A stretch of DNA of 64,000 bases from Centroscyllium fabricii. Its lineage: Eukaryota. A program made the translations under genes and the position numbers. Numbering within the stretch: the first letter of the stretch is position 1; every line of letters begins with the position of its first letter. The DNA is taken from NCBI GenBank assembly GCA_051313645.2, contig JBNRSN020000002.1, forward strand, positions 525,512,001 through 525,576,000, read 5' to 3'. Positions 661 through 6,982 of the stretch are shown one piece after another. Below the pieces are notes generated by a model that saw only the letters and a program-made list of their open reading frames with translations, made no database searches and was not told the DNA's origin.

Positions 661-885
661 TGTGGTAAACCACTGTTCTGTTTGTACATAACTTGTCTGG
701 GCATGTCTCTGCTGGTCTGCCCCTGGCTTCACCCCTAAGCCCAGGTATAAAGGTGACTGAGCTCCAGTCCCCTGGGCTTTCAGGATCGGTCTAAAGCTAG
801 AGACATGCTCGTCTTCTTTACTCAATAAAAGCCTATTTGTTACTTGTATAACTTCTAGTCTTTTGGAGTTATTGATAGCGCATCA
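661..885 (+). mobile_element. 5' LTR of a Gypsy retrotransposon (225 bp)
   Basis: TG...CA termini (tgtggt...gcatca), TATAAA at 746, AATAAA at 824, and a gag ORF starting 20 nt downstream. Confidence 0.85.
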
Positions 886-904
886 ATTTTATTGACTAAA
901 TTTT

Positions 905-1465
905 ATGATGGAGCAAATCCTGAAACCGGAACACCTGGAATTGGATCCTCAACTAGCGGATGCATCCAACAACTTCAAGCACTGGCTGAGCTGCTTTGAA
1001 GCATTCCTGCAGGCCTCTAGCACTACTGTCAGGTCCGACGCTGACAAGTTACTAGTACTGAACTCCCGGGTGAGCCACCAAGTATATTCGATGATCCAAG
1101 ACGCAACATCCTATACGGACACTATCAGTTTCCTTAAAAATCAATATATTAAACTGGTCAATGAGGTCTATGCCAGACACCTCCTGGCTACCCGTAAACA
1201 GCGACCTGGGGAATCAGGTGACGAATACCTACGGGCACTGAGAGTCTTCAGCTGGCCTGGAAGTGCAAATCAGTGACGGCCACAGAAAATATGGAGGATT
1301 TAATCCAGGTCGCCTACAGGGTGGGCTCGACCTGCAAAAGGCTGTGACCCTCGCTAACTCGCTGAACGTGGCTCACCGAAACATGGACGCATACTCCCCT
1401 GACCACGCGGCCACATCATGGATGTTGCAGGCGCCGCCATCTTGGGACTCGGTAGGGCCACAAGA
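905..1465 (+). pseudogene. Gypsy gag, frameshifted and truncated
   Basis: ORF MEQILKPEHLELDP...ARHLLATRKQRPGESGDEYLRAL is a retrotransposon gag (MHR-like QxxGES motif); it continues in another frame as LDLQKAVTLANSL. Confidence 0.85.
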
Positions 1466-2694: not shown

Positions 2695-2710
2695 TGTTTC
2701 TATGTTTCTA

Positions 2711-4035
2711 ATAGATATACCCAGTTAGACGCATACCCCCTTCCCCGCATATCTGATATGGTCAACCAGATTGCGCAGTACTGGGTATTCTCTACCATTG
2801 ACCTTAAGTCGGCGTATCACCAACTCCCTATCAGGTCTGAGGAACAGCAGTATACTGCCTTCGAGGCAAACGGCCGCCTCTACCACTTCCTTAGGGTTCC
2901 ATTCGGCATCACCAATGTAGTCTCAGTCTTCCAAAGGGAGATGGACCAGATGGTCGACCAGAATGCGCTGCAGGCCATTTTCCCTACCTGGACAACGTTA
3001 CTATCTGTGGCCATCACCTGCAGGACCATGACGCCAAACTCAAAAAATTCCTCCGCACAGCCCAGCGGTTAAATTTGACCTATTACAAGGAAAAATGCAT
3101 GTTTCGCACCACCCGCCTCGCTATCCTTGGCTGTTTCGTGGAAAACGGAGTCATCGGCTCCGACCCTGACTGGATGCGCCCCCTCCTGGAACTACCCCTG
3201 CCTCACTGCCTCAAGGCCCTGAAGAGATGTCTGGAGTTCTTCTCTTACTACGCCCAGTGGATGCCCAATTACGCGGACAAGGCCCGGCCCCTTATCAAGT
3301 CCACCTCCTTCCCCCTGGCATCAGAGGCCCGCTTAGCATTCAGCCATATTAAAGAGTACATTGTGAAGGCCACAATGCATGCCATGGATGAGTCCATCCC
3401 TTTCCAGGTGGAGAGCGATGCGTCCGGCTTTGCCCTGGCCGCAACCCATAATCAGGCGGGGAGACCCGTGGCCTTCTTTTCACGAACCCTCCAGGGCCCC
3501 AAAATTAGACACTCCTCAGTAGAAAAGGAGGCCCAAGCTATAGTGGAGGCTGTGCGGCATTGGAGGCATTACCTGGCCGGTAATCGTTTCACCCTGCTCA
3601 CTGACCAACGATCAGTAGCATTTATGTTCAACAACAAGCAGCAGGGCAAAATCAAAAATGGGCGGCACGGTGGCATAGTGGTTAGCACTGTTGCCTCACA
3701 GCGCTAGGGGCCCGGGTTCAAATCCGGCCTCGGGTGACTATCTGTGTGGAGTTTGCACATTCTCCCCGTGTCTGTGTGGGTTTCCTCCGGTGGCTCCGGT
3801 TTCCTCCCACAGTCCAAAGATGTGCGGGTTAGGTTGATTGGCCAGGATAAATTGACCCTTAGTGTTAGGGGGATTAAATATGTGGGGTTACGGCGATAGG
3901 GTGGGATATGTGTCGGTGCAGGCTCGATGGGCCGAAATGGCCTCTATCTGCACTGTAGGGATTCTATGATTCTATGATTCTATGATTGAGGTGGAGAATC
4001 GAATTAGCCACCTACAATTACGTTTACCGGGCCGG
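2711..4035 (+). pseudogene. Gypsy pol remnant (RT + RNase H), frameshifted, interrupted by a SINE, lacking protease and integrase
   Basis: Motifs DAYPLPRI, IDLKSAYHQLP, YTAFEA, PFGITN, YLDN, ESDASGFAL, PVAFFSRTL, EKEAQAIV, FTLLTDQRSV; after the SINE it resumes as RWRIELATYNY..VYR. Confidence 0.92.
3660..3987 (+). mobile_element. HE1-type V-SINE (tRNA-derived) with (CTATGATT)n tail
   Basis: tRNA-like head with A box tggcatagtgg and B box ggttcaaatcc; V-domain gtggagtttgcacattctccccgtgt...ctccggtttcctcccacagtccaaag. Confidence 0.9.
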
Positions 4036-4039
4036 TATA

Positions 4040-5175
4040 TAACTCTTGATAAAAGCTGCTCGCCGCCTCTAAAATCTCCCCACTTTCATGAATGATCTTC
4101 TCCCCAACCTTCAACTCTTCAATTAATGATAATCTCTGTTGCAGCTTTTCTTGCTCTAGAATATATCAAGTGCATCTTTCGCCCTCCAATGCATCTCCAG
4201 CCTTTGCATGGAAAATGGCCCCCTTGCATTTTTCAGCTTGCAATAATTCCCACTCTTCCTTTAGCACCCGGAATTTAGTCTCAGCTCCCTTATCCCCTCT
4301 GTCAACTGCTTTACAGACATCCGTAAACCTTTTGTTTATATTCTCTTCTCGGTGACAGTTAGCTGCCGCTCTCTTTTTCCCATAACGACCGAAAAAACTT
4401 TTACCGCATATTTGAAATTGTCCCATCAAACTCTTCCTTCTTTCAAGAACAAAGGTTCCTTCTGAGCATTCTTTATCATATTTAAAATTCGAAGAACCAA
4501 AGCCAAGTGGTCACTAATAAATACTTTTTTGTAATAAATCTCCATCACCTCAGAACTTACCCCTTCCCGCATTAACACAAAATCTATTCGACTCTGTTTT
4601 AAAACGTCACCCACCCAGCCTGATCTGGTGAACTCCATTTTTATGGGGTTCCGATCCCTCCATAAGTCTCTCAAATTTAAATTTGCCATCATTTTTACAA
4701 TCATCCCTCTGGAGTTATCATCCTAAAAGGTCATCTGGGCCGAATTGTCCATCCAAGATAAAAATACATTAAAATCCCCCACTAGACAAGGATTTTCCAC
4801 CTCTGCCACTTCAGTGAATAACCCCCGAAAAAACTTGCAATAGTTGTTCGGTGCATAGATATTAAAGAGATCGTAATTAAATTCCTCCATTTTCACCCTT
4901 AGCCATAAATATCTCCCCTCAGTGTCCTTGTCCACCAAGGCAATATTCTCCTTTATGGACGGACTCACCAAAACAGCCACCCCTCTATGGTTATTGTTTG
5001 CACAACTTGCAAACACTTCTCCCTTCCAAACCTTCTGAACTCTTTCTAGGATATCCTCCTCCCAAAAGGTTTCTTGCAGACACAACAAGTCCGTGTTTAT
5101 AAAACCCTGCAACAACTGCAGCAATTTCTTCTCACCCCTCAATCTGTTCACATTAATTAAGACCAATGTAGTCAT
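4040..5175 (-). pseudogene. Tx1 ORF2 N-terminus: apurinic-like endonuclease, disrupted
   Basis: APE motifs INVNRLR, LCLQET, GVAVL, EGRYL, NIYAPN, VGDFN, DLWR, SRIDF, SDH, then KCKGA..EGERCT. Confidence 0.9.
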
Positions 5176-5217
5176 GGCTCCAAAGAAGGGAATTATGGCT
5201 GATAATCTCCCCATCAT

Positions 5218-6895
5218 TTAATCTCTGGCCCTGCCCTCCTCTCATGCTCCTTCCCAACTTTTCGGCCAGCTGTTGCTTTTTCCTGCAGCCTCCGACTCTT
5301 TTTCACCTCCTGTTTCAACCTTCCTGCTGTTTCAGCCTCTTCCTTGCATTAAGTTTGGGCCCAGGAGCTGCCCTTTCTCCCTCCTTCTGCCCCTCACTAA
5401 CCTTTCCCTCTCCACATGATGCTGCCCCACCCCCCACTTCCATGTCTCTGTCCCCCTCTAATTCCTCACTCTCCAGCTCTTCTGTAACTCTCTGTGCCTG
5501 CTCCCTATCAGATACATAATCCTGCTCCCCATCCGATACATCTTCTCCCATAGAGAGTCTTCCTGCTATCACAGTTTCTCCAACCGTGCCGCTCCCTTTG
5601 ACCTCATCTCCACCTCTGACCCTTGCTCCCTGATCCTTCTCTCTCTGGGACAATGGTGCATCTATATTGCTCCCCCCTGTTGTCTTTGTCTCGCCACTTC
5701 CATCCTGCTGCCCCTTTAAGGCTCCTGTCTCTTGCACCCTCTCCTTGTCTTGCCCCCTCCTGCTCACCAAGATGTCCGACTCTCCGTCTTTCTTTGGAGT
5801 ACTTACATTTACAACGCACCCTGCTCCTGCCTCCTCTCCCCCCATGGACACCAGATTCTTCAGGGAAAGCTGAACCGTATTAAGGCTCGAGACTGCACTC
5901 AACCCTTGCTGCCCGCTGCTGTCTTTGTTCTTTTCCACTGTACTTGGTGTGTTTTCCACCATCTCCATCCTGTTCTCTGCTCCGCCATTTTCTGCCTCTT
6001 CCTGTGCTCTTTGCTCCTTCAATTTTCCCGCTGTGTCCTCTGACTGCTCCGCTCCTCTGGCCATTCCACTCACACCTCCTGCTCCTTCTCCCATCTCTTC
6101 ATCACTCATAGAGCTTCCTTCTGCCTCACACTCACAGCGGGTGGGGCCTTTGTGACCCACCCTACAGCTCTCCGCCTTGCAGCTCCAAGTGATGTGTCCA
6201 GACTTGCCGCAATTATAACAGTGGAAGTCTGGACTGTTTCTTACAAGATGGTCGTGTCCAAGACAATAATAACAAACCTTCACTTGGTTATCATGCAGTA
6301 CTCGGAAGTACTGCACTCCTTCCATTGTCTCAAATTTCATGCTGCACGGCAATGACTTCGCCCTCTCTGGGAACCGCACCTTAATGTAACAGGTTCCATC
6401 TGTTACCTGTTTTCCTGGATAGTATCTCCTCTTTATTGCTGAGCAAATTTTAATGTCCCACTACTCCAACCTTTTGATTAGTATATCATCCTCAATATAA
6501 ACTGGCAAGTTTAAGAATTAAACCACCACCTCTTCTGAATATAGCAGAGATACCTTCAAGAACTTATCGCCAACTCTCAAACTGAGTAAAAGTCTTTCCA
6601 CCTCCTCTTGGCCACTGACCGTCACCTCGAACCCAACATTCGGCTTTGGTCGGCAAGCAAAGCAGCTTCCCTCGCTGCAGTCCTCCTGTACCACCTGGAT
6701 AATATCCCATGCTCATATCTCCTTAATCTCGCACTGAACCACCACAGTGTTTTCTTTTCCAAACGTCCTGGGGTCCCAGCCCAAATCCTTGGGCCTTTTT
6801 CATTCCCTTCCAAACACAGTTAATTCCCTAATTAAATTCATCATGGGAACACTGTCCTCTGAGAGGCCCGGCTCTCTGGACCCCTCAGCAGCCAT
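5218..6895 (-). pseudogene. Tx1 ORF1p (gag-like, CCHC knuckles, acidic low-complexity C-terminus), disrupted
   Basis: FLNLPVYIEDD..RRYYPG..DGT..KVRFP..SLPCSMKFET..YFRVLHDNQVKVCYYCLGHDH..CYNCGKSGHITWSC, with stops and frameshifts upstream. Confidence 0.85.
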
Positions 6896-6982
6896 CTGGC
6901 TGCTGTTTATTGGCCAAAAAGGCTCTAAAACCTGAAAACAAAAACCCAAAAACCCACCACCAACTTTTTACAAACTCACTCC

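Follow-up and report, generated by a model that had tools for sequence, protein, structure and literature searches.

As far as the available text of the cited reports goes, priming of reverse transcription by an element's own RNA has been shown for Tf1 of fission yeast and ascribed to its chromovirus relatives and to a few plant lineages. In Tf1, the RNA's first 11 bases pair with the primer site and are freed by RNase H (PMC7175516), the primer sits in a three-duplex fold called the "pretzel" (PMC10085805) and the cDNA retains a DNA copy of the primer (PMC11042837). For the plant elements Tcn1 (Gypsy) and TAR/Houba/Osr-1 (Copia), self-priming was predicted from a complement of at least 10 nt between the site after the LTR and the 5' LTR, and the available part of that report mentions no primer length, no link to the poly(A) signal and no fossil evidence (PMC6317226). 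The element described here belongs to another lineage and kingdom than these plant elements. It likely self-primes with a fragment of its own transcript, 50-55 nt long, the site behind the LTR pairing with an arm inside the LTR and no tRNA taking part.

The copy under study is the 5' part of a broken Gypsy retrotransposon in Centroscyllium fabricii (contig JBNRSN020000002.1). It lies in a stretch of 64,000 nt that was analysed as a whole and is referred to as the window. In the list that follows, the TATA box, the poly(A) signal and the small hairpin were read directly from the sequence. Run-on copies are aberrant copies in which the complement behind the LTR extends past the arm. The features are:

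661..885, plus strand: 5' LTR (TG...CA, 225 bp); start from 30 copies, end from second LTRs and target duplications
746..751, plus strand: TATA box, 85 nt before the arm's 3' end
776..830, plus strand: predicted self-primer of ~55 nt, from the transcript start (TATA+30/31) to the arm end; placed by run-on copies L198 and L201, which end at 776-777, and by matching abrupt drops in run-on ends in two sister families
817..830, plus strand: LTR arm, complement of the primer site, with a mismatch at 821 in the window copy
824..829, plus strand: poly(A) signal AATAAA, at the arm's 3' end
830..831, plus strand: predicted cut between arm and U5 stem, placed by the arm-end motif and insertion joints
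831..885, plus strand: R/U5 loop between the arms, predicted template of minus strong-stop DNA, with an inner hairpin at 848-872
871..887, plus strand: small hairpin over the LTR end (871-876/882-887)
886..900, plus strand: spacer base 886 and predicted primer-binding site 887-900, placed by the layout of CA, one nucleotide and arm complement found in 32/32 families that have the repeat
905..1464, plus strand: 5' part of gag, ATG at 905; frame broken near 1250, followed by insertions
917..925, plus strand: complement of 778-786 over 9 nt, at which L198 and L201 have their joint
2710..4022, plus strand: broken RT-RNase H remnant (2710-3658, 3985-4022), with an interruption

The LTR end at 885 was located from a second LTR with an identical CA terminus, present in 12/20 longer loci; the 5-bp target duplications at those 12 two-LTR loci were exact in 9, carried one mismatch in 2 and were missing in 1. 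A first-pass annotation of this DNA had placed the LTR end at GCATCA (885) with no TGG adjoining it, had paired 887-900 with 817-830 at 13 of 14 positions, covering AATAAA, and had noted the hairpin at 871-887 and the gag ATG at 905. The shared CA ends and target duplications bear out the boundary, and the sequence and the computed pairing agree with the other points. Its placement of the partner in an internal R segment past the presumed transcription start is also supported, with the distance corrected from about 45 to ~40 nt, counted from the predicted start at 776-777. It had further proposed that the 3' LTR has no partner downstream. Only the 5' LTR does have a partner. The window itself contains no 3' LTR of this interrupted copy.

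Whole copies of the element measure ~4.3 kb and encode gag, protease, RT, RNase H and integrase (Pfam on natural copies) in the Ty3/Gypsy order, with a zinc-knuckle gag followed by PR-RT-RNase H-IN. They have TG...CA LTRs, a purine tract and a target duplication, and relatives carry a single ORF of ~1,200 aa. Ty3 RT is the best solved relative. No chromodomain was found in the integrase up to the stop codon, nor among the domains listed for 120 relatives. The closest named proteins come from rays and a catshark, followed by corals, nematodes, flukes, crustaceans and spiders; no relative was matched in a viral sequence collection, a search for longer gag relatives gave one match, and motif searches for the clade in the published supplementary files searched gave none. 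The clade is large, with more than 9,000 junctions of one family in the C. fabricii genome and 2,253 protein clusters at 50% identity. We presume that it may be Cigr-1 (Ciona, molluscs), to which a length of ~4.2 kb, one ORF of ~1,200 aa and short LTRs would match. The Cigr-1 clade of Ty3/Gypsy is named in PMC6238403, the available part of which is silent on priming. No description of the clade's priming was found in the literature searched, a scope that left out Repbase, GyDB and the original Tf1/sushi papers, and the available portions of PMC6934838, PMC8556966, PMC4600332, PMC5341516 and PMC2864245 contain none either.

Two side observations concern the RT. Its catalytic motif (~2980-3010) reads YLDN in place of YxDD, and among 214 stored relatives carrying the motif, a redundant set, the residue is N in 146 and D in 68. 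In an RT tree with one outgroup and a weakly supported base, the C. fabricii families fall on two separate branches, one of which nests among invertebrate-type sequences; given these two branches, the clade may have entered or persisted in the lineage more than once. Seven contigs filed under bacterial genome assemblies (L161-L167) also carry this animal retrotransposon, likely through host contamination.

The closest likeness is to the Tf1/sushi group of chromoviruses (Tf1/Tf2 of Schizosaccharomyces pombe, Tj1, Tosmo1-3). According to the available text on that group, its members likewise have a post-LTR site that complements their own LTR and use no tRNA. They also share a stem adjoining the primer and, if the cycle proposed below is right, a primer copied into the cDNA end (PMC7175516, PMC10085805, PMC11042837). 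Unlike in Tf1/sushi elements, the paired arm is internal, 13-18 nt long and ends with the poly(A) signal, and it is preceded in the C. fabricii families by a predicted leader of ~40 unpaired bases. In contrast to a primer of ~11 nt from the start of the RNA, the run-on copies of three C. fabricii families end at 50-55 nt. The missing chromodomain, the internal arm and the long leader together indicate that the element is not a member of the Tf1/sushi group. Skipper of Dictyostelium and the fungal GalEa likewise have no TGG primer site, but they differ in having no complement in the LTR, as described in the available parts of PMC5006619 and PMC5445492.

To return to the inverted repeat, the two arms of the window copy are 14 nt each, 13/14 complementary and 56 nt apart. 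Among 30 copies of the window family, pairing was 14/14 in 23 and 13/14 in 7; the folding energy of the 141-nt region alone was not unusual (z -0.52). In a sister family, two changes in the arm are matched by two compensating changes after the LTR. The first-pass annotation had suggested looking for such covariation among relatives, and we did so on a set of families collected by gag alignment, which gave 80 metagenome and 7 genome-collection loci. Seven loci that did not include the start of gag and 2 whose upstream DNA was too short were left out, and two C. fabricii families were added; the final set comprised 80 loci from 39 families. Perfect inverted repeats of at least 9 nt were present in 32/39 families compared to 4.7% of 975 shuffles, and one of at least 12 nt in 30/39 compared to 0.1%. 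A family's own arm pairs were on average complementary at 11.9 of 12 positions, against 7.6 for cross-family pairs, so the arms change together.

The register of the repeat is fixed. The partner begins one base past the CA of the LTR end in all 32 repeat-bearing families, and the last base of the arm is A in 32/32. Position +2 is C in 30 families and position +3 in 28; the bases after the arm are G/A-C-C in most families. In the invertebrate-type families, the second LTR copy stops exactly at that CA in six, agrees with it to within 1-3 nt of chance overlap in three and ends 3 nt earlier in one. A search pattern built on this layout gave 9,264 genome matches versus 1,014 for the reversed control and revealed three further families. 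The hexamer in the 32 arms is AATAAA in 11, ATTAAA in 15 and another sequence in 6. HIV-1, which is primed by a tRNA, likewise has its poly(A) hexamer base-paired near the 5' end, in a local hairpin, but the partner here is the predicted primer site itself. Upstream in the arm, -10 is G (24/31) and -11 is A (19/31), preceded by T's, a preference that is kept though any pair would do.

In 26/35 families, folding favoured over shuffles a stem whose first base directly follows the arm (p 9e-6). It is mostly a local hairpin, so the three-duplex pretzel of Tf1 is probably not general here, and in the window family a stem directly after the arm was not favoured in the copy folded. The small hairpin over the LTR end occurs in 3/5 C. 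fabricii families and was rejected as a clade feature, being present in 1/30 of the others. In the remaining 7/39 families no inverted repeat was found in the interval searched, and inspection by eye showed mostly damaged copies. One has a 5' LTR deleted between arm and primer site, through the inverted repeat, while its 3' LTR retains the arm (L101). In another the arm is visible in the 3' LTR (L105), one is decayed (L155) and three are rearranged or cut (L118, L124, L144). Collectively, these results establish the complement of the LTR arm behind the LTR as a real, clade-wide feature. A tRNA site beginning with TGG was present within 5 nt of the LTR in 0/32 repeat-bearing families, and none was seen in the other 7. 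The arms covary and TGG is missing, which together rule out a fixed tRNA primer. The possibility of a host RNA matching the segment, raised with the first-pass annotation, was checked with Rfam over positions 600-1000, and nothing was matched apart from one chance match.

If the element primes itself, aberrant copies may record the ends of the primer. In the L194 family, of which 30 of 53 copies were fetched, 24 LTRs carry 8-40 nt of inverted LTR end including the complement of the spacer, inserted exactly between the last A of the arm and GCC (ACC in one). Both ends were found for 22 of these, and 16 are solo LTRs with exact 5-bp duplications; as solo LTRs, they have no adjacent primer site to copy from. 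The window family contains one copy of this insertion type (L199/L383). The insertion joint is the primer-DNA joint predicted by self-priming, as read from these sequences, and points to minus strong-stop DNA that stopped at that GCC before folding back over its own start. The joint coincides with the U5 stem, which offers microhomology here and might on its own direct a template switch. Joints that are identical, such as those of the 19-nt type, may go back to a small number of events.

The other end of the primer would be the transcription start. A TATA box lies at -83 to -110 from the arm end in five C. fabricii families and a TATA-like sequence at -81 in a sixth. Judging from the sequence, transcription of the window copy likely starts ~31 nt after the TATA box, at a predicted 776-777 and ~40 nt upstream of the arm; in family 2 the initiator A is predicted at -52. 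No retroposed copies with a poly(A) tail were found in family 3, and contigs from two runs, aligned to 640-1280, revealed neither starts nor ends. A splice-acceptor-like motif upstream of the arm was considered and rejected, being weak (7/25, expected 3.5) and contradicted in C. fabricii by run-ons that are contiguous with the LTR.

A Tf1-like primer that is kept on the minus strand and copied should yield failed copies that run to the first base of the RNA. Run-on copies, known from the C. fabricii genome only, make up 0.3-3% of junctions: 4 versus 1,297 normal junctions in the window family, with 3 more matches at two mismatches assigned to other families, and 317 places versus 9,609 normal junctions in family 2. 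Family 3 has 6. Reversed-pattern controls gave 0, and the patterns are blind to run-ons below ~19 nt. Among 100 of the 317 family 2 run-ons that were fetched, 59 end at 22-54 nt, 1 at 55-72, 16 at 73-233 and 24 at 234-236, the latter being the first bases of the LTR. The drop is abrupt: the interval 47-54 contains 28 ends and the interval 55-62 a single one (p about 1e-7). The predicted initiator A lies at 52. For a second sister family, 30 of 60 run-ons were fetched and 5 dropped (no own arm in 1, a normal junction in 1, a cut LTR in 2, a duplicate in 1); of the 25 kept, 13 end at 44-53 and 0 at 54-63, with the predicted start at 50. In the window family, L198 and L201 run on for ~55 nt to 776-777 and then enter gag again via a 9-nt microhomology; the two are 89% alike and thus separate copies. 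The three families with such data have similar TATA distances (81-85). In families with other TATA distances, all 6 run-ons of family 3 reach the LTR start and the L194 family has almost only the insertion type.

The 60 short run-ons of family 2 also bear on how these copies arose. In 39 the sequence continues into scattered positions of the element and no joint recurs, and 7 are flanked by exact 5-bp target duplications. A second strand transfer that went astray before an otherwise normal integration would be expected to leave such copies. Compared with the variants of their own LTR, run-ons follow in 42 cases and do not in 61, a count in which indels were not handled. In 13 of 21 family 2 LTRs that are cut on the left, the end falls 1-15 nt past the predicted cut, and in none does it fall at the predicted start (52). 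Some of the aberrant copies (L199, L200, L202-L207 and 24 of L211-L310) are snap-back insertions, in which the LTR and spacer are followed by an inverted copy ending at the LTR's first base. Plus strong-stop DNA that folded back on itself would be expected to leave this structure.

Self-priming in some form is very probable. In the cycle that we propose as the likely one, transcription would start ~31 nt past the TATA box, and the last 13-18 nt up to and including the poly(A) signal would pair back with the site that lies one base behind the end of the LTR. The RNA would then be cut in cis right after the arm, at the foot of the U5 stem (830/831), probably by the element's RNase H, an assignment made purely by analogy with Tf1. 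The freed 3' end would prime minus-strand DNA and U5 would be copied back to the cut, whereupon the minus strand would jump to the short stretch between cut and poly(A) site at the 3' LTR. The primer would remain attached and be copied by the plus strand, which would explain the joint change of arm and primer site. Copying on through the unpaired leader, followed by a stray second jump, would fix a run-on copy in the genome. As a side effect of the cycle, the 5' poly(A) signal would first be hidden and then removed. Aberrant copies are the only record of the long primer, and the normal halt of plus-strand copying at 13-18 nt, without a modified tRNA base, poses a puzzle.

Other accounts of these data were weighed against this cycle. 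Productive RNAs might start at the arm itself, giving an 11-14-nt primer as in Tf1, with the TATA-driven RNAs as an aberrant side class. At least 97% of junctions carry a complement of 13-14 nt only, which fits such a short primer, as do the favoured A at -11 and G at -10 and an initiator-like match at -11 in 5 families. However, the TATA boxes of C. fabricii lie 81-110 nt before the arm end with none ~30 nt before the arm, and the abrupt drop in run-on ends shows that long RNAs served as primers, so we regard a start at the arm as unlikely. The same 50-55-nt primer would be predicted if a short transcript terminating at the poly(A) site of the 5' LTR annealed in trans to full-length RNA and was trimmed to the duplex, leaving the template uncut. 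This would give the hexamer a role, and the family 2 left ends 1-15 nt past the predicted cut are compatible with it. An uncut template should nevertheless let minus strong-stop DNA reach the start, which 0/21 left ends do at 52; moreover, the insertion class resumes at GCC and six arms lack a strong hexamer, and priming in trans seems to us quite improbable.

Two further accounts fare worse still. The first-pass annotation had offered, beside tRNA-independent fold-back priming, a switch by which only the poly(A) site of the 5' LTR is silenced. Taken as the whole explanation, with a host RNA of some kind as the primer, pairing would merely hide the signal; AATAAA or ATTAAA is present in 26/32 arms and the partner is confined to the 5' LTR, both of which suit this role. 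Yet the spacing of CA plus one base is fixed in 32/32 families, at least 5 families of one genome differ in the arm so that no single host RNA fits, and in the run-ons and insertions the DNA of the LTR end is joined to the leader of the element itself. We therefore consider hiding alone very unlikely. Silencing is possible as a second role of the pairing, but not as its only one, given the 6/32 arms without the hexamer, the invariant spacing to the LTR end and the fact that no other primer site was seen. The aberrant copies could also be products of DNA fold-back or of template switching during replication at the inverted repeat, in which case self-priming would rest on covariation alone. That 24/100 run-ons reach the first bases of the LTR, which needs a DNA template, speaks for this, as does microhomology at many joints. 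It gives no reason, though, for a drop at the predicted start, which 40 copies pass while 1 stops within the next 18 nt, nor for insertion-bearing solo LTRs without an adjacent partner, and we give it very little credence. Fold-back priming without a tRNA, the other half of that earlier proposal, finds support in the covariation seen in 32 families and in the aberrant copies that record both primer ends.

The proposed variant of self-priming appears to be new, and the genomic evidence for both primer ends is unusually direct. Its full form would be an animal, non-chromovirus Gypsy clade, ranging from cnidarians to sharks, that uses a capped 50-55-nt RNA primer cut exactly behind the poly(A) signal. 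A single duplex would serve as primer, mask the 5' poly(A) signal and leave a minimal R, with the primer freed from the transcription start and genomic copies recording both of its ends. We hold this combination to be somewhat more probable than otherwise. A second, very abundant animal clade would make self-priming common and would reopen the question, raised in the available text of PMC3601003, of whether tRNA priming or self-priming came first. Self-primed elements would also escape the control by tRNA fragments that is described for tRNA-primed elements in the accessible part of PMC7472051. If the interpretation is true, the thousands of genomic copies amount to a fossil RACE experiment on both ends of the primer, and reading primer ends from aberrant genomic copies may be applicable to any LTR family without RNA data.

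The remainder of the window contains further repeats. The insertions at 1465-2709 and 3659-3984 consist of pieces resembling SINEs and of another LTR-like repeat, which has duplications inside it. On the minus strand, a LINE-like element with endonuclease-like and zinc-knuckle ORFs (~4030-6900) truncates the Gypsy copy, and a long minisatellite with a 16-bp unit and a strong strand skew extends over ~9780-30000.
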